DNA from: a virus
DNA: 64,000 bases
IMG/VR virus record: IMGVR_UViG_3300021142_002226
Coordinates: 96,001 to 160,000 of that record
Strand: one strand, 5' to 3'
Below the pieces are notes generated by a model. It was given only the letters and a program-made list of their open reading frames with translations, made no database searches and was not told the origin of the DNA. This document shows, piece by piece, positions 4,796 to 60,857 of this stretch (the stretch's first letter is position 1; each line of letters starts with the position of its first letter). The translations under genes were made by a program, and so were the position numbers.

Positions 4796-7700
4796 ATGAG
4801 TGAATATAGTATCCCAATGGAGTCTGTGGAAAAGTTTCTTTCTGGTCATGGTGAAGAGAAATATATTGTAAATATTGAATATGAATCTGACACAAATACA
4901 ATATATAAAATCAAAGATATACCAGAACAAGGGATTGTTATTGAGAAAGAATTCTTAAAATCTTTCATGTGGATTAAAAACCTTAATGAAGTTAAAAAGA
5001 TTTGCAACTTTTATCATAACAACGATCTTACCATTAAACTCAAAATGAAGGAGTATGGCATCCAAATTAAAAAGCTAAGACACGATGACCACCCAAGATT
5101 AGTGAATGGTTACACATATTTAGTTACATGTGAACAAGGACACAAAAGAATGCTATCATTTTTTGCTGATGGTGGTATAAATTTCTACAACAAGTTTGAA
5201 AAGAGAATTAATTTAAAGGAATATTTTACAATATTATCCCCAATTGAACAGTATTTTATCAGTACTGGTAATCGTTTATATAAAGGTATTGAAGATTATA
5301 ATGAGTTGACAAAACTTATTTTTGACTTGGAAACAACAGGCTTGGATCCAAATATAGAAAAAATATTTTTGATTGGTTGTAAAACTAATAAAGGATATGA
5401 AAAATTGATTGAAATCGACATAAACGACCCTGAATCTGAAAAAAATGGGATTATACAATTCTTCAATGAAATCGATGCAATAAAACCAACTATCATTGGT
5501 GGTTACAATAGTGCAAACTTTGACTGGTATTTCATATTCAAAAGATGTCAAATTCTTGGTATTGATATTGAAAATATCGCAAAGACTCTGAAAAAAGATA
5601 AACAAATATACGTTACTGAACAAATACTAAAACTTGGTAACGAGGTTGAAAGATATATCCAAACAAATATGTTCGGATATAGTATTATCGATATTAACCA
5701 CTCAACCAGAAGAGCACAAGCTATTGATTCTGATATGAAATTTACCAGATTGAAATATGTTTGTAAATATAATGATGTTGCTAAATCAAATCGTGTATAC
5801 ATCGTTGGTGAAAATATTGGAAAATATTGGAAAAGCGACAAGAAATATTATTTTGATGATAAAAGTGGTTCATATTCTGAAATTAAACCAAAAGTTGAGT
5901 ATATGGATTTTATCACGAGACAGATTGTTAAAGATAATCCAGACAAAATATTTATTTTCGGTGATAATGATCTAAGAGAAGGTTTTGGTGGTCAGGCCAA
6001 AGAAATGAGAAACGAAAAAAACTCTATTGGTATTGTCACAAAAAAAGCGCCAGGTACAACTGATGATTGTTATTATAATGATGATGAGTTTGAATTAAAT
6101 AAAAAGAAAATAAATCTCGACCTAAAAATTATAATTAACGAAATAAAGAAAGGTAAATGTATTGTTATACCTTCTTCTGGTATTGGTACAGGTTTAGCTA
6201 AATTACAGGAAAAAGCTCCAAAAACCTTCAAATTTTTACAAAATTCTTTAAACTTATTAAAGGTTTATTGTGATAGTTTTGTAGAATGTGATGGTAAATA
6301 TATTGTTAACAGATACTTGATGGATGACCTTTGGGAAACACTCGAAGTTGATAATATTTACAATCAATCATCATTTATGTTGGCTAAATTAATACCAACA
6401 AGTTATCAAAGAGTATCTACAATGGGTACTGCTGGACTATGGAAAATGTTGATGTTAACATGGTCTTATGAAAATGATTTAGCAATTCCAATAAATGATG
6501 AAAAACGAGATTTCGTTGGTGGATTATCAAGACTGTTTAAAGTTGGTTTTTCTAAGAAATTAAGAAAGATGGACTATTCATCTCTTTATCCTTCTATACA
6601 GCTTGCACATGAGGTGTTCCCATCTTGTGATATAACACATGTAATGAAATCTTTACTTAAATATTTTCACTCTGAACGTTTTAAAGCAAAGAATCTCGCT
6701 AAGAAATACGGTAAAGCTGGTGATAAACAAATGAAAAGTTTTTATGACCGTAAACAATTACCTCTGAAAATATTCATCAACTCAATGTTCGGTGCCCTTG
6801 GAGCACCAACAGCATTTAACTGGGCTGAAATGGATGTTGCTGAAGGTATTACTGCGAGAGCAAGACAATACTTAAGGATAATGGTTAAATTTTTTATGGC
6901 TAAAGGTTATGAACCATTAGTACTTGATACGGATGGTGTTAACTTTATGGCACCAGAATCTGGAGAGGAAAATTTTAGATACATTGGTCTGGGTAATAAT
7001 GAAGCTGTAATTAAAGATAAAGAATACACAGGAGTTGATGCAGTGATTGCTGAATTTAATGATTTATTCATGAAAGGTGAAATGGCATTAAGTTTGGATG
7101 GTACATGGCCGTCAACCATAAATCTTGCTCGTAAAAACTATGCCTTACTTGAAGATAGTGGTAAAGTAAAATTGACTGGTAATAGTATCAAATCTAAAAA
7201 AATGCCAGCCTATATTGAAGAATTTTTGGATAAAGCCTTGGTTTTACTATTAAATGAAAAAGGTTCTGAATTTGTTAACTACTACAATACCTACGTTCAA
7301 AAAATATATAATAAAGAAATTCCACTTTCAAAAATTGCAACAAAAGCAAGAGTTAAAAAAACTTTAGAAGATTATAAAAATCGTGGGCTTAACAAGAACG
7401 GTAAACCATTACCAAAGCAAGCTCATATGGAATTAGCCATAATCAATAAATTAAATATTAATCTTGGAGATACTTTATATTACGTTAATAATGGTACAAA
7501 ATTAACTCAAGGCGATATTCAAACAGTAAAAGTTACAAAAAAAGGTTGGTCAGAAAAAGATATAGAAGATCATATAACTCATTATGGTAAATCACCAGTG
7601 GGTCTAACATCGATAAATAAATTAAATTGTTATATGTTAGATAGCAAAGAATTGGAAGATAAACCAGATATGTTAGGTGAGTACAATGTAGCAAAATATT

Positions 7701-10996: not shown

Positions 10997-12223
10997 ATGA
11001 GTACGTATAAAATATTAGTTGCCCCTGGCGATAATGCTGGATCTGGTAAATATAGATGTGTAGACCCACATATTAAATTACAAGAATTATTTCCGAATGA
11101 TTTTTTCGTAGAAATAAATAACGCTGTTGATTTCAGTGATTTCACATATTTGAAACAATTTAGCGCTGTGTTTATACACAGGGTTCCCCAACACAATTAT
11201 AAAGATGCTATCAACATCATTACCAATTTAAAAAAACTTGGCATAAAAGTTATTATTGATATTGATGACTATTGGCATCTTGACCCTTCTCACGGTTTGT
11301 ATGAACAAGTGAAAAGAGAGGGTATTCCACAAATATCTATAAACTGTTTAAAATTAGCTGATTTGGTTGTTGTACCAACAAGTATATTAGCTAACGAAGT
11401 TAAACAATTCAACCAGAATGTTGTTGTCTTAGCCAATGCTTTAGATCCAACAGAGGAACAATTCAAAAGTAAACCATCAGAAAGTGAGAAATTAAGAATT
11501 GGTTGGTTAGGTGGTAGCTCACATATCAAGGATTTAGAATTAATAAAAGGTATATCATCAATTGGTGAATACAATAATAAATCACAAATTGTTTTATGTG
11601 GTTTTGATACAAGAGGTAGCGTAAGGCAAATCGACCCTCAAACAGGTCAAGTACAAGAAAGACAAATGAATCCAACAGAAACTGTTTGGTTCATGTACGA
11701 GTTATTCATGACAGATAATTATCGTATGTTAGAGTCATATCCTGATTATGTAAAATTCCTTGTACAATTTAAAGAGGATAAATCTTTTGATGATTCCAAT
11801 ATGCCTTATAGAAGAGTTTGGACTAAATCCATCAACCAATATGCTAAGAACTATAATCTTTTTGATGTATCATTAGCTCCACTTGTAGATAATAAATTCA
11901 ACTTATATAAATCTCAACTTAAAGTTATTGAAGCTGGATTCCATAAGAAAGCAATTATTGCTCAAAATTACGGCCCTTATACTATCGATTTAGTAAGTGC
12001 AATAAAATCAGGTGGTGAAATAGACCCTAATGGTAATTGTTTACTTGTTGACCCATCTAAAAATCATAAACAGTGGCAAAAATATGTTAAGAAGTTAATC
12101 GATAACCCACAAATGGTTAAAGATCTTGGTGAAAAATTATATGAAACCGTAAAAGATAAATACAACCTTAATAATGTTACTAAAACAAGAGGTGAAATAT
12201 ATTTAAATTTATTAAATAAATAA
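10997..12223 (+). CDS. GT-B glycosyltransferase
   Basis: DIDDYW, RIGWLGG, FDVSLAPL...KSQLKVIEAG motifs. Confidence 0.8.
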   Translation: MSTYKILVAPGDNAGSGKYRCVDPHIKLQELFPNDFFVEINNAVDFSDFTYLKQFSAVFIHRVPQHNYKDAINIITNLKKLGIKVIIDIDDYWHLDPSHGLYEQVKREGIPQISINCLKLADLVVVPTSILANEVKQFNQNVVVLANALDPTEEQFKSKPSESEKLRIGWLGGSSHIKDLELIKGISSIGEYNNKSQIVLCGFDTRGSVRQIDPQTGQVQERQMNPTETVWFMYELFMTDNYRMLESYPDYVKFLVQFKEDKSFDDSNMPYRRVWTKSINQYAKNYNLFDVSLAPLVDNKFNLYKSQLKVIEAGFHKKAIIAQNYGPYTIDLVSAIKSGGEIDPNGNCLLVDPSKNHKQWQKYVKKLIDNPQMVKDLGEKLYETVKDKYNLNNVTKTRGEIYLNLLNK

Positions 12224-12818: not shown

Positions 12819-13038
12819 TTTTTTAAACGCTTTAATTGAAAAAAGACCAGAATTAGAATTGAAAGTCAAAGAGTTCGAGCACCCATTGGATAAACAAAAT
12901 AAATACTTTTCTTTGTATATTAATGGTATCGATTCAAGATTTATATTACCTGAAACTGAACTTAATATTGAAGATCCTCAAGAAATTAATGAATTAGTTA
13001 ACATAACTTTAATGTATATAAATAAAAATGGAAAATAA
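12811..13038 (+). CDS. Hypothetical protein
   Basis: Start reassigned to ATG 12811, which overlaps the upstream stop (MSNFLNAL...). Confidence 0.55.
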   Translation: MSNFLNALIEKRPELELKVKEFEHPLDKQNKYFSLYINGIDSRFILPETELNIEDPQEINELVNITLMYINKNGK

Positions 13039-13582
13039 TTTAGATGAATTTAATATCTTAGATCAAGATATCAAAAAAATACTTGAAAACGCAAATAATT
13101 TAGTCAAAGACTGGGTTTATGTTGACAATGTAATGAAACTTAAGATTAGATTTGTAAATCAGTCAACAAATCAGGATCCAGCTTACGCTAAACAAGGTGA
13201 TAGTGGTTTTGATTTGAGAGCATTCTTAAAAGAGGATGCTGTTTTGAAGCCATTTCAAAGAGCTTTAGTGCCAACTGGTTTGTATTTTCAAATCCCAGAA
13301 AACTTTGAGTTACAAGTTAGACCAAGAAGTGGTTTAGCTTTGAAAAATGGTATTACTGTATTAAATACTCCAGGTACAGTTGACTCTGGATATCGTGGTG
13401 AAATTTGTGTAATACTAATTAATCTTGGTTCTGAAGATTTCATAATCAAAAACGGTGATAGAATTGCTCAAGCTGTTATTGCCCCAGTTCAAACAAATAA
13501 TAACCTCGTATTTATGAAGTCTTCTTCGTTAGAATCAAGCGAAAGAGGTGATACAGGATTCGGAAGTAGCGGTGTCAAATAA
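13028..13582 (+). CDS. dut: dUTPase (trimeric)
   Basis: DSGFDL, RPRSGL, GTVDSGYRGE, RIAQ, RGDTGFGSSG. Confidence 0.97.
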   Translation: MENNLDEFNILDQDIKKILENANNLVKDWVYVDNVMKLKIRFVNQSTNQDPAYAKQGDSGFDLRAFLKEDAVLKPFQRALVPTGLYFQIPENFELQVRPRSGLALKNGITVLNTPGTVDSGYRGEICVILINLGSEDFIIKNGDRIAQAVIAPVQTNNNLVFMKSSSLESSERGDTGFGSSGVK

Positions 13583-34771: not shown

Positions 34772-37579
34772 ATGGCAAATTTTACAGTATTTCAAAAATT
34801 AAATAAAGTTTTAGGTAATGAATTAGAATCACCTAAATATACCATTGACCCAAATTCATTCAAGAATCTTGACGATCAGGAACTCGAAATGAAACGACTT
34901 GAGGCACAGCAGGTCATCTATTTACAGAATCAGTGGAAAAAAATTGATAACGAATTATATCAAAAAGCTGTTTATTACGAACCAACCAGAATCGCATCAT
35001 ATTATGATTACGAAGCAATGGAGTTTTGTTTGGCTGGAGAGACTAAAATAGCAACACCAAGCGGATTCATAACCATAGAAGAGTTAGCTAAAAAGGGTAG
35101 GGAGAATGAATTTATTGTTTATTCCTATGACCATAATACTAAAAAAGTTGTACCAGCATGGGCTAAAAACGCACACCATACAAGAGATGAAGTGACATAT
35201 AAGGTTATTTTTGACGATGATTCTTATATTATTGGTACTTTTGACCATAAATTAATGAAAAGAGATGGTAGTTTTTCAAAAATTTCAGAATTAAAAGAAG
35301 GGGATTCTATGATGCCTTTCTATAGAAAATCTTTTTATAATAACCAAAAATATAATTGGGTTTATACTTGTAATTCATTAGAAGGTTATAATGGTTGGGT
35401 ATCTGAACACAATTTAATTGCTGAGTGGTTCTATGAGACTAAAATTAATGAAGATGAAGAGGTTCACCATATAGATTTTAATGGTAAAAACAATTCCCCT
35501 GAAAATTTATCTATTATGAAAATATCTGAGCATAGAGCATACCATGCGAGATTAAATAATAGTAAGCTTTGGGTAAATGAGGAATATAGAGCAAAAATGC
35601 TTGAAATAAGTAAAAGAACAGATAATAAACACAAATGGAATGGTGCAAGAAGTGGTAAGAATAATCCAGCTTATTTTAAAATACCTTTTGATTTAATTAT
35701 TGAAACAGCAAAAAAAATTAAAACACTTAAAGGTACGGCGAAAGAGTTAAATATTTCTCACACAAAATTACAAAGAGAAATAATGATGGCTGGATATAAA
35801 GACTGGAAAACATTTTGTCATGCATATAGTATAGAGTTATCTAAATACTCAACAGCAACCGTTAAAGGTGAACAATATGTTCTGAATCATAAAATTAAAT
35901 CTATTGAACCATATAAAGTTATACCAGTATATGATTTGACAGTACCAGGGTATAAAAATTTTGCAACAGATACAATATTTTCACATAATACTCCAGAAAT
36001 TGCTGCTGCGCTTGATATATTTTCTGAGGAGGCAACAACACCTAATGAAAGTGGTAAAATTCTAACAGTATATTCGGAAAGTAATCGTATCAAAGACGAA
36101 TTAACAGACCTTTTTGATAATGTAATCGATATCAATTCAGTTATCACCAGCTGGGCAAGAAACCTATGCAAATATGGTGATAATTTTTTATATAACAAGG
36201 TTATTCCAGGTAAAGGTATTGTGGGTGTAACACAATTACCAAACATCGAAATCACAAGAGCTGAACCAGGTTTCTCAAAAGTTATGAGTATGGATGATTT
36301 CCAAAAAGAAAAGAATGTTAAATTCTTTTGGAAGGAAAAACAACTTGATTTCAACTCATTTGAGATATCTCACTTCAGACTCATGGGTGATGATAGACGT
36401 TTACCTTATGGTACAAGTATGCTCGAAAAAGTTAGAAGAATTTGGAAACAATTACTTTTAGCCGAAGACGCTATGCTTGTTTATCGTGTTACCAGAGCCC
36501 CAGAAAGACGTGTTTACAAAGTTTATGTAGGTAATATGGATGAAAAAGACATCGATGCTTACGTAGATAAAGTCGCTAATAACTTCAAAAGATCAAATTT
36601 GGTAAACTCATCAAACGGACAACAAGATACCAGATATAATGCTATGGCCGTGGATCAAGACTTTTTTATCCCAACCAGAGACCCTCAATTACCAATGCCA
36701 ATTGAAACATTACCAGGAGCTCAAAATCTTGGGGAAATAGCTGATATTCAATACATTCAAAATAAAATGTTGGCTGCTCTAAGAATCCCTAAAACGTTCT
36801 TAGGTTTTGATCAAGCTGTTGGTGACGGTAAAAACCTATCCATTCTTGATATACGTTTTGCAAGAGCTGTTTATAGATTACAAAGATCTATAATACAAGA
36901 GTTAAATAAAATGGCAATCATCCACCTTTATGTTAAAGGTTATGAGGATGATTTACATAATTTTACTCTATCTTTATCTAATCCTTCCACCCAAGCAGAC
37001 ATGCTTAAAATCACTAACTGGCAAGCTAAAATACAACTTTACAAAGACGCTGTTACAGATCTTGGTAATGGTTTTGGGCCTGTATCACAAACTTGGGCTA
37101 AGAAAGAAATTCTTGGATTCAGTGATGATGAAATTAAAATTGATGTTCAAAGACAAGTTGTGGAAAAAGCAGCCTCTGAAGAACTTAAAATGTTGGGTGA
37201 AACAATCAAACAAACAGGTATGTTTAGAGATTTGTATAAATTATACAAGATTGATCCTAACAATATGGGACAAGCGCCTGCTGAAAACCAACAACAAGAA
37301 ACTCCTCCAGGCGGCGGAACAGGTGGTGGTGTAGCTCAAGATTTCACAGCACCACTCGAAGGTGGAACAACCCCTGAAATTGGTGGAACGGAAACAACAC
37401 CAGAAGCTGGTGCTGCACCAGAGGCTGGCACGGCTGAAACCCCAATGCCAGGTACGCCAGGTGAAGAAACACAATTACAAGAAAATATGGTAAAAAGGAT
37501 GTTATTGAATAGAAGACAGTCAATAAGTGAAAATATTTCCAAAACTTTGGATGATATTGACAAAATGTTAAACGAATAA
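34772..37579 (+). CDS. gp20: Portal protein (T4 gp20-like) with an intein
   Basis: YEAMEF|intein|TPEIAAALD, RLPYGTSMLE, YRVTRAPERRVY, DFFIP, L..ALRIPK. Confidence 0.93.
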   Translation: MANFTVFQKLNKVLGNELESPKYTIDPNSFKNLDDQELEMKRLEAQQVIYLQNQWKKIDNELYQKAVYYEPTRIASYYDYEAMEFCLAGETKIATPSGFITIEELAKKGRENEFIVYSYDHNTKKVVPAWAKNAHHTRDEVTYKVIFDDDSYIIGTFDHKLMKRDGSFSKISELKEGDSMMPFYRKSFYNNQKYNWVYTCNSLEGYNGWVSEHNLIAEWFYETKINEDEEVHHIDFNGKNNSPENLSIMKISEHRAYHARLNNSKLWVNEEYRAKMLEISKRTDNKHKWNGARSGKNNPAYFKIPFDLIIETAKKIKTLKGTAKELNISHTKLQREIMMAGYKDWKTFCHAYSIELSKYSTATVKGEQYVLNHKIKSIEPYKVIPVYDLTVPGYKNFATDTIFSHNTPEIAAALDIFSEEATTPNESGKILTVYSESNRIKDELTDLFDNVIDINSVITSWARNLCKYGDNFLYNKVIPGKGIVGVTQLPNIEITRAEPGFSKVMSMDDFQKEKNVKFFWKEKQLDFNSFEISHFRLMGDDRRLPYGTSMLEKVRRIWKQLLLAEDAMLVYRVTRAPERRVYKVYVGNMDEKDIDAYVDKVANNFKRSNLVNSSNGQQDTRYNAMAVDQDFFIPTRDPQLPMPIETLPGAQNLGEIADIQYIQNKMLAALRIPKTFLGFDQAVGDGKNLSILDIRFARAVYRLQRSIIQELNKMAIIHLYVKGYEDDLHNFTLSLSNPSTQADMLKITNWQAKIQLYKDAVTDLGNGFGPVSQTWAKKEILGFSDDEIKIDVQRQVVEKAASEELKMLGETIKQTGMFRDLYKLYKIDPNNMGQAPAENQQQETPPGGGTGGGVAQDFTAPLEGGTTPEIGGTETTPEAGAAPEAGTAETPMPGTPGEETQLQENMVKRMLLNRRQSISENISKTLDDIDKMLNE
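35027..35989 (+). mobile_element. Contiguous intein (321 aa) with an HNH endonuclease
   Basis: CLAGET...TFDH...VHHIDFNGKNNSPENL...VYDLTV...FSHN|T. Confidence 0.92.
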
Positions 37580-57056: not shown

Positions 57057-57111
57057 TCTTTTTTTTAAATAATTGATTTACTTTCTTAATTTTTATACTA
57101 TTTATTGTGGT

Positions 57112-58566
57112 ATGAGAATTGTAACAAAAAAAGAAAGTTTTGATTTTAAAGAATATTTTAAAACTGTTAATGATTTAAAAACATTTATCAAAGAAAATAA
57201 TGAATTTGTAAATGTTGAAGGTATTGGTGAAAAGATAGGTAAATTATATGATGATTTATCCGAATTAGATATTTCTTTAAAATCATCGGTTTTACCTGAA
57301 AGATTAATTTATTATCTTGGTTTTAAGAATAGGTCAGCATTTAAGTTGGATTTTTGGTTGGAGCGTGGTAATACTATAACCGAATTTAATACTTGGTTAT
57401 TAAAAAGGAGAAATATTGAACCAGTTAAATCTTTGGAATGTGGTAACGTAAATAAATTCGAATACGGTGAGTTTAAATTTACGTTTGATGGTAGACCAGT
57501 TTGTAATTTATGTAAATCCGATTTAACATTTGATGTTTTAACCGATAGGTATGTGATAAAAAATTGTCAAAATGATGGTTGTCCAACACACAAAAATCAA
57601 GATCAATACTTCATAAGGCAACTGGCTTATTTGCCTATTGATATTTTTAAAAATAAAAATAAGAGAACTAACATAGAATCGAGGATTCATCCTTATTTTT
57701 GGTTGTTGTCTGGTTTAACTTATGATGAGTCGTTGAAAAAATGTGAAGAGATAAAAACCACACTTAAAAATAAAATAAAGGGGTCAGATGAATATTATAA
57801 GATTTTATTTGGTTTGACTGATGAAATGGCTTTAGATAGGGCTTTAGCACCAACTCAAATTAGGTTTTGGGTTAATAGGGGTTTTTCGGAGGAGGATGCT
57901 AAGATCAAAGTGTCTGAAAACCAAAAGAATGCGGCTAAATCTGTTGATTTTGAGAAACGGTTATTACCATCAAATATTGAGTATTGGATTAAAAGGGGTT
58001 TAACGGAAGATGACGCTAAGGTTGAAGTATCTAATCATCAGAGGACGTTTACACTTCAAAAATGTATTGATAAACATGGTGAAGGAACTGGTAACCTTAT
58101 CTATACTAAACGACAAGTTAAGTGGCAAACTTCATTAATTGAAAATGGGAATTTAAAATGTGGGTTTTCAAGAATATCACAAGAATTATTTTATCGACTA
58201 TTAGACGAATATTCATTTAAAGAAAAAATTGACGTTTTTTTTGCTACAAAAAATAAAGAATATTTTATATCTTTAAAGGGTGGTGAATTTTATCAATATG
58301 ATTTTGTTGATAGGAATAAAATGAAAATTATCGAATTTAACGGTGACTGTTATCATGCAAACCCAATTAAATATAATGAAAATGATAAGCCCAATCCGTT
58401 TAGACAAAACCTAACAGCATCAGATATATGGGCTAAAGATAAAAGAAAAACGGAAGTTGCTATTGAAAACGGTTTTCAGCTCTTAACAATATGGGAATCG
58501 GAGTATAAAAAGAATAAAGAGTTAACAATAAAAAAATGTTTGGATTTTTTGGAAATCCGAGAATAA
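57112..58566 (+). CDS. Free-standing homing endonuclease (Vsr-like C-terminus) between the clpC halves
   Basis: Start reassigned to ATG 57112, behind TATTTAT at 57099; FSRISQELF...YDF...IIEFNGDCYH...D..K...TIWESE; W..RG.sEE repeats. Confidence 0.8.
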   Translation: MRIVTKKESFDFKEYFKTVNDLKTFIKENNEFVNVEGIGEKIGKLYDDLSELDISLKSSVLPERLIYYLGFKNRSAFKLDFWLERGNTITEFNTWLLKRRNIEPVKSLECGNVNKFEYGEFKFTFDGRPVCNLCKSDLTFDVLTDRYVIKNCQNDGCPTHKNQDQYFIRQLAYLPIDIFKNKNKRTNIESRIHPYFWLLSGLTYDESLKKCEEIKTTLKNKIKGSDEYYKILFGLTDEMALDRALAPTQIRFWVNRGFSEEDAKIKVSENQKNAAKSVDFEKRLLPSNIEYWIKRGLTEDDAKVEVSNHQRTFTLQKCIDKHGEGTGNLIYTKRQVKWQTSLIENGNLKCGFSRISQELFYRLLDEYSFKEKIDVFFATKNKEYFISLKGGEFYQYDFVDRNKMKIIEFNGDCYHANPIKYNENDKPNPFRQNLTASDIWAKDKRKTEVAIENGFQLLTIWESEYKKNKELTIKKCLDFLEIRE

Positions 58567-58586: not shown

Positions 58587-59066
58587 ATGACAATGAATTA
58601 CTACGAATTTTATGAACAAGAGTCGTTGGCTCAGTTAGATAAGGATTACCCAAATGAAGAGGGGCATAAAAAATTCACCAAAACTTGGAATATCGAAAAT
58701 TTTAGTGTTTTAACGGACAATGGATTTCAAAAAATTGATAAACTACATGAAACAATATCGTACAATGTTTATCATTTAATATTGGATAATGGATTTGAAC
58801 TTAAATGCGCTGATAACCATATTGTTATGTTACCTCGTATGGTTAACATGGTAAGACAACTCGATAATATGAGTGAATCGACAGAACCTATTGAATGTTA
58901 TGTTAAAAATTTGAAACCAGGTGACTTAGTTCATACTAATGATGATATTGGTTGTGCCTCTGTTGTATCCGTAACCAATCTTGGATATCAAGAGAATATG
59001 TATGATTTGCAATTATCAGACGATTCTAACCACAGATATTACACTAATGGTATATTGAGCCATAAT
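58587..59066 (+). mobile_element. Split intein C-fragment (about 160 aa) of ClpC
   Basis: VLTDNGF, block [22 protein letters not shown], with Thr at +1. Confidence 0.88.
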
Positions 59067-60857
59067 ACAGCTATCGTTGAAGGATTGGCCATTAAAATAG
59101 CAAATAACGATTGTCCCAGAACATTGCAAGGTAAGCGTCTTGTTACGCTCGACCTAACCTCAATGGTTGCTGGTACAAAATATCGTGGCCAGTTTGAAGA
59201 ACGCATAAAAGCGTTACTTGATGAAGTTCGTGATAACGATCAGGTTATATTATTCATTGATGAACTACACACAATGGTTGGTGCTGGCAATTCATCTGGT
59301 TCCCTTGATGCTGCAAATGTATTCAAACCAGCTCTTGCTCGTGGTGAAATACAATGCATTGGTGCAACAACTCTTGACGAATATCGTGAACACATTGAAA
59401 AAGATGGTGCACTTGATAGAAGATTTCAGAAAGTAATGGTTAACCCACCATCAATTACTGAAACCAGAGATATTTTAATGAACATAAAAAACAAGTATGA
59501 GGACTATCATAAAGTAACTTATACTGAAGATGCTGTTGATGAAATTGTAAGACTTGCTGATAGGTATATTACCAATCGTGAATTTCCAGACAAAGCTATT
59601 GATATACTTGATGAAGCTGGCTCACGCACACACATTAATATAAAACCACCTCAAATCATTAAAGATCTACAAGACGAGATTAATGAAATTAAAGTTGAGA
59701 AACAAAATGTTGTTAAAACACAAAATTTTGAAAAAGCAGCAGACCTTAGAGATAAGGAAAAGAAACTATTAACACAACTTGATAAAGAATCTGGTATTTG
59801 GAAAAAAAGTCTTGAAATAGATAGAGTTGTTATCGATGAAAACATGATAGCTGATGTTGTATCATCAATGACTGGTATACCTGTAAGTAGGGTTTCACAA
59901 AACGAAATTCAAAGATTACTTCAAATAGACACTGAATTAAAAGATTCTGTGATAGGTCAAGATGAAGCAATTCAAAAAGTTGCTTCAGCTATCAGACGTA
60001 ATAGAACTGGTATAAGCAGAAAAAGTAGACCAATTGGTTCTTTCATGTTTATAGGCCCTTCAGGTGTTGGTAAAACGGAACTTGCCAAAACTCTCGCTGA
60101 AAAAATCTTCGGAACACAAGATGCTTTAATCAGATTTGATATGTCTGAATTCGGTGAGAAATTTAATGTAAGTAAACTTATAGGTTCACCTCCAGGATAT
60201 GTTGGTTATGAAGAAGGCGGCCAACTTACAGAAAAAATTAAGAATAAACCCTATTCATTAATATTGTTCGATGAAATCGAGAAAGCGCACCCAGATGTTT
60301 TTAATATCCTACTCCAATTACTGGATGAAGGTCATCTTTCAGATTCATCAGGTAGAAAAATAAACTTTAAAAATACCATCGTCATTATGACATCTAATAT
60401 CGGTATTAGAGAAGTTCAAGATTTCGGAACCAAAATTGGTTTTAGCGCCGATGGTTCAGAAGATGATTTGAAAAACGCAAATTATATCATAGAAAAAGCT
60501 TTGAAAAAGCAATTCAAACCAGAGTTTTTAAATAGGTTAGATGATATAATTTACTTTAATTATCTTAAAGATGAAAGTATATTAAAAATTATCGATATAC
60601 AATTAAACGATCTTGAAGAGAGATTACTCGAATCTTGTTATACACTTGAAATTGGTAAAAACGTTAAAGAATACGTATTAAAACAAGGTTATGACAAAAA
60701 TTACGGAGCCAGAGAAATTCAACGAACAGTTCAAAAATACCTCGAAGATCCTATTTCCGAGGAATTGTTAAAAGAACATATGCCTAAATTTGCACATATT
60801 ACCGTTGGTTACGATAAGAAAAATGATAAGCTAAATATCAAAATAACCACTACTTAA
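58587..60857 (+). CDS. clpC: Split-intein IntC plus ClpC C-fragment (rest of NBD1, UVR domain, NBD2)
   Basis: ILSHN|[62 protein letters not shown]. Confidence 0.93.

Follow-up and report, generated by a model that had tools for sequence, protein, structure and literature searches.

What is a segment of about 120 amino acids doing inside the proofreading domain of a phage DNA polymerase? The polymerase in question is encoded in a 64,000-nucleotide stretch of viral DNA, positions 96001-160000 of the 190,177-bp IMG/VR virus record IMGVR_UViG_3300021142_002226. This whole stretch is called the window in the following. The enzyme belongs to family B, as ExoI, ExoII and ExoIII as well as the polymerase motifs A and C lie within one open frame. 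The original prediction read the segment between ExoII and ExoIII as a macrodomain-like module with two diphosphate-binding glycine loops, which would recognise or remove the ADP-ribose that DarT toxins attach to phage DNA. We find that the segment is a full-length copy of the Pfam domain DUF7831 (PF25176). Judging from structure models, this domain likely has a macro-like fold, and a function of the insert directed at ADP-ribose or against DarT is plausible.

All peptides quoted in the original prediction are present in the translation, and the segment is real. In an alignment with six IMG/VR relatives that lack it (53-57% identity), the polymerase carries ~114 extra residues (371-484) between ExoII and ExoIII, and the flanks of this segment join directly in the relatives. 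The insert is thus delimited to nt 5906-6247, which lies within the predicted 5903-6270. It matches PF25176 over model positions 2-117 of 118 with 144-149 bits (E 1.8e-42 to 5.9e-44). Because the gathering cut-off of this family is 27 bits, and the polymerase insert reaches 144.3 bits, the extra segment is not a chance resemblance. A second match is to phrog_2072, whose function is not known. As had been noticed from the sequence, intein and endonuclease motifs are absent: the polymerase matches no intein, HNH, LAGLIDADG or GIY-YIG family in Pfam or PHROGs. We therefore rejected an intein or homing-endonuclease insert. The segment resembles such elements in being an in-frame insertion of ~115 aa in a conserved polymerase gene that is absent from close relatives, but unlike them it is a globular DUF7831 domain, has a host-like base composition (GC 0.290 and GC3 0.198, vs 0.298 and 0.226 in the rest of the gene) and is vertically inherited. 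A recent horizontal acquisition is supported neither by this composition nor by the domain tree described below.

The fold was approached with AlphaFold2 models of the insert (pLDDT 90) and of a free-standing homologue, P0003 (pLDDT 94). Both models agree in the order beta-alpha-beta-loop-alpha-beta-alpha-beta-loop-alpha-alpha. When solved structures were ranked against the P0003 model, ranks 1-9 were all occupied by macrodomains (2afc 6.8, DarG 6.5, Poa1p 6.5, nsP3 6.2, TARG1 6.0), and the first other fold, CbiL, appeared at rank 10 with a score of 5.5. The superposition on DarG (rmsd 3.6, 106 aligned residues) had the highest identity listed, 22%. For the insert model, too, the nearest solved folds were macrodomains. 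A comparison by features in the ESM Atlas, which yields leads only, placed the A1S_2505 phage family nearest among the named clusters (0.88) and a cluster with 11% Macro members at 0.80.

The residues that are invariant among the free-standing members of DUF7831 form the motifs G-x-N, G-x-x-G-x-A, N-x-x-G-x-x-x-K, G-x-G-x-G-L and A-P. The polymerase inserts keep these residues invariant, with the exception of G462 and L467; in the second candidate loop, P459, G464 and G466 are thus invariant among the inserts and G462 is not. For comparison we used the DarG of EPEC, the sequence of which was taken from its RefSeq locus. In DarG, ADP-ribose is hydrogen-bonded by N8, L9, T20, N22, V31, Q34, T79, G117, G119, N120 and G121 (Jankevicius et al. 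2016, PMC5179494). The catalytic lysine is K80, which corresponds to K84 of TARG1, and the activity is impaired by the exchanges N22A, K29E, G119E and K80A (PMC5179494). From the order of the motifs plus the structural ranking we infer the residue equivalences listed in Table 1. The loop 2 pattern P-x-x-G-x-G-x-G is identical to that of DarG (P114-P-L-G117-A-G119-N-G121). Compared with the DarG macrodomain and human TARG1, which hydrolyse thymidine-linked ADP-ribose on DNA and glutamate-linked ADP-ribose, the insert is ~35 residues shorter. It has four predicted strands instead of six, because it lacks the ~33 residues that DarG has between loop 1 and the T-K strand, and because a long C-terminal helix takes the place of the last strand.

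Several results weigh against a macrodomain. Neither model had a match with E <= 0.001 when searched with Foldseek against the PDB; PTP/DUSP phosphatases and DHFR headed the weak matches, and the best TM-score listed was 0.46, for TARG1 (4j5s). Re-examination of the Foldseek candidates yielded no macrodomain, none having ranked high enough there. The Pfam Macro family (PF01661) was matched by none of 32 DUF7831 members at E-values up to 10, only DUF7831 itself being returned. An hhalign comparison in local mode with a DarG macro profile (EPEC DarG plus 60 homologues) did reproduce the equivalences of T-K and loop 2, but its score of 16.6 was not significant: column shuffles gave 12.7 +/- 2.7, and 3 of 40 reached it (p ~0.07). 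There is likewise no significant sequence or profile similarity to TARG1, and a PDB profile search, PADLOC and NCBIfam returned nothing linking DUF7831 to macrodomains. The macrodomain interpretation is partly supported: macrodomains are the nearest solved folds and two conserved glycine motifs follow strands as in DarG, whereas matches by sequence, by profile or by a significant Foldseek hit did not materialise. Because the family has members in giant viruses, fusion partners of phosphatase type and decayed copies in other polymerases (all described below), rival explanations also have to be considered.

On this evidence we tentatively propose that the insert may be a polymerase-tethered, minimal macrodomain of the TARG1/DarG type, which would bind ADP-ribose between the two glycine loops and release it from template or primer DNA in a K416-dependent reaction, as an accessory defence against DNA-ADP-ribosylating systems. 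DUF7831, most likely a pared-down relative of TARG1, DarG and Poa1p with four of six strands, would have entered the polymerase in a single capture, at a surface loop that immediately precedes the ExoIII helix in the 3'-5' exonuclease domain. The P-x-x-G-x-G-x-G loop would clamp the diphosphate, the N-x4-G-x-GG loop would have been retained as well, and the invariant T-K would occupy the position of the catalytic lysine in DarG and TARG1. The domain could then bind nucleotide-attached ADP-ribose and cut the bond between ribose and base. As part of the polymerase, it would clear adducts of ADP-ribose (e.g. of the DarT type) from single-stranded template or primer DNA at sites where synthesis would otherwise stall. 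The background to this idea, as given in the original prediction, is confirmed by published work: DarT ADP-ribosylates single-stranded DNA and blocks phage replication, and mutations in the polymerase permit escape. Phages also make use of orphan NADAR erasers (PMC11825919 for AdfN).

How the insert is distributed among polymerases bears on its history. About 29 polymerases in a database clustered at 90% carry the same insert (54-98% identity); the contigs that encode them reach 358 kb. When 150 sequences representing the wider polymerase family were compared, a clear DUF7831 was seen in P0084 and P0090 only. The stretch between query residues 365 and 490 differs in length among relatives, which have 2 to ~160 residues there. 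A decayed but recognisable homologue occupies the same site in 25 further polymerases, most of which form one distant, N-terminally extended clade. These decayed inserts are linked by BLAST and by HMM E-values of 1e-5 to 1e-7, and have lost the GDN, GxGG, TK and GxGxG motifs altogether. Polymerases of this type (P0150) have no close relative among cultured phages. In BFVD, the fold was found at 18-20% identity within 1278-1451-aa proteins of uncultured 'cr' phages, which may be polymerases of the P0150 type. Decay also appears to be in progress, as far as can be read from the sequence, in an IMG/VR record of 153,961 bp (L016), whose insert is still recognised as DUF7831 (E 2.9e-35) and is altered in each of the two glycine loops (FGDN to YSDN, GGQ to GEQ, GTGLA to GNDSS). 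Other polymerases (P0087, P0088, P0095, P0104, P0195, P0200, P0223 and others) contain unrelated or unrecognisable inserts of 40-100 aa at the site equivalent to window 5890-6265, which makes this exonuclease-domain loop a hot spot for insertions.

With the exception of the long-branched P0090, the copies carried by polymerases group together in the domain tree as a single clade. Such a tree is to be expected if the domain was captured once and then passed on vertically, with clean losses and decay in some lineages. Nested within the polymerase-borne clade is P0002, a 'free' DUF7831 protein of 163 aa with a hydrophobic N-terminal segment, encoded on a contig of 1086 bp; possible explanations are the escape of a copy from a polymerase gene and the miscalling of a fragment. 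Within the intact clade, mean identity to the query is 66% for the insert, 64% for the exonuclease, 70% for the polymerase domain, 58% for the N-terminal and 52% for the C-terminal part, and in the most distant intact group the insert (58-60%) exceeds the exonuclease domain (44-49%). The insert is therefore as well conserved as the exonuclease domain there, and these identities indicate purifying selection.

In six insert-bearing IMG/VR records, the polymerase insert is the sole DUF7831, and 14 records with an insert-less polymerase have no DUF7831 anywhere; as virus records are fragments, these absences are weaker than they look, except in one 290,710-bp relative with an insert-less polymerase that is rated 97% complete. 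A canonical Macro or NADAR domain was found in none of these 20 related records, and the phage's own 190-kb record contains no Macro, DUF4326, NADAR or DarT (PF14487). The insert is an accessory feature and not a core part of the polymerase. A functional replacement in the sisters with an insert-less polymerase was considered and rejected, as they have no free DUF7831, Macro or NADAR gene. Outside the window, at G000:C1:179416-179604 (-) (locus L011), a 99-aa frame has an ADP-ribosyltransferase-like match to ART-PolyVal (PF18760; E 2.2e-8, 32 bits). Self-protection against this gene of the phage's own is unsupported, since the gene is absent from the 20 related records, including the six with the insert.

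Beyond polymerases, the free-standing small phage proteins mentioned in the original prediction do exist: homologues of ~125-145 aa that are 40-61% identical to the insert were found in metagenomes and in cultured phages of Sinorhizobium, Ruegeria, Caulobacter, Rhizobium and Microcystis, and among the giant viruses DUF7831 is found in Tupanvirus, Hyperionvirus and Yasminevirus. The neighbours of the free-standing copies (phiM9, Seuss, Mwe-JY26) are almost all hypothetical and without a Pfam match. In virus-rich ESM Atlas clusters, DUF7831 is fused to DUF4326 and YAcAr-SLOG domains, DUF4326 being predicted to process terminal phosphates of ADP-ribose products (Iyer et al., PMC9503650). Together with an 'active DUF488-N3a' domain, it also stands at the N-terminus of proteins of 1500-1650 aa. 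One of these, of 1546 aa (L098:8001-12641 (+), on an 86-kb metagenome scaffold), opens with the two domains, and ~1250 of its residues match no family. Its gene is placed between those of a MobL relaxase and a T4SS coupling protein and has SSB and RNase H as near neighbours, so that the product appears to be a polyvalent protein encoded by a conjugative element. On a T7-like phage contig (L101:1188-7001 (+)), an internal virion protein of 1937 aa (phrog_6651) contains DUF7831 at residues 558-668; the gene for this ejected protein is directly upstream of those for the tail fibre, the small terminase and the terminase. In all three settings, at the replication fork, in conjugative transfer and during genome ejection, DNA is exposed, newly arriving or single-stranded, which would fit a counter-defence role in protecting DNA. 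The literature search found no paper mentioning DUF7831.

Some of these contexts suggest another substrate. A macro-like domain might bind or hydrolyse small derivatives of ADP-ribose or NAD (ADP-ribose-1''-phosphate, O-acyl-ADP-ribose, immune signals of the cyclic ADP-ribose type) or ADP-ribosylated proteins instead of DNA, and its place in the polymerase might merely secure early co-expression or localisation. Poa1p, which scores on a par with DarG, is an ADP-ribose-1''-phosphatase, most DUF7831 members are free-standing proteins of ~130 aa, the fusions to DUF488-N3a and DUF4326 recur, and the giant viruses infect eukaryotes. However, a vertically inherited internal insertion that is as conserved as the surrounding exonuclease domain would be an unusual route for supplying a soluble small-molecule enzyme, and the other embedded contexts, the ejected virion protein and the giant protein next to a relaxase, travel with DNA; we consider this explanation unlikely. 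If the insert were mainly a structural or regulatory module without catalysis, i.e. a docking surface of the replisome or a ligand-sensing switch for proofreading, its conserved residues would only keep the fold or ligand binding. Such a module would be compatible with the motif-stripped homologous insert kept throughout a large polymerase clade, with partial decay in the related lineages P0086, P0091 and L016, and with a site that tolerates unrelated inserts in other relatives. For a spacer or docking module it is unexpected, though, that the residues invariant in free-standing members are also (nearly) invariant in the insert, and because sister phages with a clean deletion keep a full polymerase, the insert is not structurally required. 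We regard a mainly structural or regulatory role as improbable.

It is more doubtful still that DUF7831 is not a macrodomain at all but another three-layer alpha/beta fold that binds nucleotides or phospho-sugars, such as a divergent SLOG or a rhodanese-phosphatase-like domain, acting for example on modified DNA ends or on signals derived from nucleotides. The PTP/DUSP phosphatases at the top of the weak Foldseek matches, a putative tyrosine-phosphatase cluster as ESM Atlas neighbour (TM 0.50) and the missing support from sequence profiles would agree with this. SLOG domains are likewise defined by strand-glycine-loop-helix units. Membership of the rhodanese-phosphatase (PTP/DUSP) group was rejected, as the Cys-x5-Arg phosphate-binding loop and the PTP fold were not found.

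Read as the polymerase-tethered de-ADP-ribosylating macrodomain that we favour, the insert can be compared with several known systems. Unlike DarG, it is embedded in a polymerase and is not an antitoxin, it has no DarT-binding C-terminal domain, and no darT gene is its neighbour; with no DarT in the 190-kb record and a domain internal to the polymerase, a DarTG toxin-antitoxin system was rejected. Archaeal family-B polymerases have a read-ahead pocket for uracil, which is part of the N-terminal domain and senses uracil only. The insert would resemble it as a built-in module that meets a lesion in the template before the active site does, but it is an entire foreign domain, lies in the exonuclease part and would take the lesion away; the likeness is a conceptual one. 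The free-standing DUF7831 proteins (Sinorhizobium phage phiM9 gp155, Caulobacter phage Seuss gp109, Tupanvirus, Hyperionvirus) share the invariant residues with the insert; unlike the insert, they are encoded by small genes of their own, which lie among early-type genes that are uncharacterised. AdfN (PMC11825919), an orphan ADP-ribosylglycohydrolase of the NADAR family directed against DarT, is accessory and patchy like the insert. It is a phage-encoded enzyme that strips ADP-ribose from phage DNA and thereby lets replication go on, an activity the insert may have. It differs in its unrelated NADAR fold, in being a separate protein, in acting on the guanine adducts of DarT1 and in that its activity has been shown experimentally (PMC11825919).

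Table 1. Features of the polymerase and its insert (positions in the window), and residues proposed to correspond in DarG
Feature	Position	Strand	Basis or remark
Family-B DNA polymerase gene P0001, 1068 aa	4796..8002	+	Stop-free open frame; Pfam and PHROGs matches
ExoI motif FDLETTG, residues 176-182	5321..5341	+	D177, E179 and T180 invariant across 12 aligned polymerases
ExoII motif YNSANFDW, residues 237-244	5504..5527	+	Pairs with Pfu YNGDSFD in alignment
Inserted DUF7831 domain, residues ~371-484, predicted minimal macro-like fold	5906..6247	+	PF25176; insert-less relatives; AlphaFold
Candidate loop 1, F388-G-D-N391-D-L-R-E-G396-F-G398-G399-Q-A401	5957..5998	+	Invariant in free-standing members and polymerase inserts
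T415-K416-K417, candidate catalytic lysine	6038..6046	+	K invariant, T nearly invariant
Candidate loop 2, P459-S-S-G462-I-G464-T-G466-L	6170..6196	+	Glycines invariant in free-standing members
A474-P-K-T477, family-specific invariant motif, start of last helix	6215..6226	+	No assignable DarG counterpart
ExoIII motif RYLMDD, residues 506-511	6311..6328	+	Pairs with Pfu KYSMED; ~22 residues downstream of insert end
Polymerase motif A region YSSLYPS, residues 594-600	6575..6595	+	Motif location and alignment
Polymerase motif C LDTDGV, residues 710-715	6923..6940	+	Motif location and alignments
Strand, then N391-x4-G396-x-G398-G399; proposed DarG counterpart N22-x5-G28-K29-G30			Motif order
Strand ending T415-K416; proposed DarG counterpart T79-K80			Motif order; non-significant hhalign
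Strand, then P459-x-x-G462-x-G464-x-G466; proposed DarG counterpart P114-x-x-G117-x-G119-x-G121			Motif order; non-significant hhalign

The polymerase matches the Pfam families DNA_pol_B, DNA_pol_B_exo1 and RNase_H_2 as well as phrog_262 (DNA polymerase), and its residues 498-864 align with archaeal PolB structures. The record that contains the window has a CheckV completeness of 64%. Because CheckV gives 97% for the related 290,710-bp record, the phages of this group are jumbo phages of roughly 300 kb. Downstream of the polymerase, the window codes for a glycosyltransferase (10997-12223 (+), phrog_7162, E 5e-44) and a dUTPase (13028-13582 (+), PF00692, E 1e-27); the majority of the remaining neighbours have no Pfam match. 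The window also contains genes for a major head protein and for a 935-aa portal protein (34772-37579 (+)), of which residues 406-793 are covered by phrog_213 and residues ~177-285 are an HNH endonuclease-like segment that matches several HNH phrogs. A 497-aa gene without assigned function (57073-58566 (+)) precedes a 756-aa gene for an ATP-dependent protease or chaperone-like protein (58587-60857 (+), phrog_4871, E 2e-218).

Database pipelines already label these polymerases with PF25176. In agreement with the original prediction, which knew of no such fusion, the literature search found no description of it, no proposal for a function of DUF7831 and no macro-like domain inside a DNA polymerase. 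By comparison with the known systems, the novelty would lie in the location: macrodomain-type handling of ADP-ribose in phage counter-defence, inside a polymerase, appears to be without precedent. ADP-ribosylation of DNA by DarT is a recently recognised anti-phage defence, to which phages are known to respond with inhibitors (AdfA, AdfB), free NADAR erasers (AdfN) and point mutations in the polymerase. A polymerase with a built-in eraser would, if true, be a fourth route, and would give the phage polymerase-intrinsic immunity to DNA-ADP-ribosylating defences. We know of no earlier lesion-reversing enzyme domain inside a replicative polymerase, so that such an eraser would be the first. The wider claim, that a replicative polymerase carries its own DNA de-ADP-ribosylase, which erases DarT-type adducts in cis, and that the same domain in ejected and relaxase-associated proteins guards DNA at entry, is bolder, and we regard it as somewhat unlikely. 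The structural contribution of the domain could be traced through the decayed copies, a natural series found within a large polymerase clade. For DUF7831, an uncharacterised family that spans phages, giant viruses and conjugative elements and is repeatedly located in proteins that accompany incoming DNA, a testable function has now been proposed.
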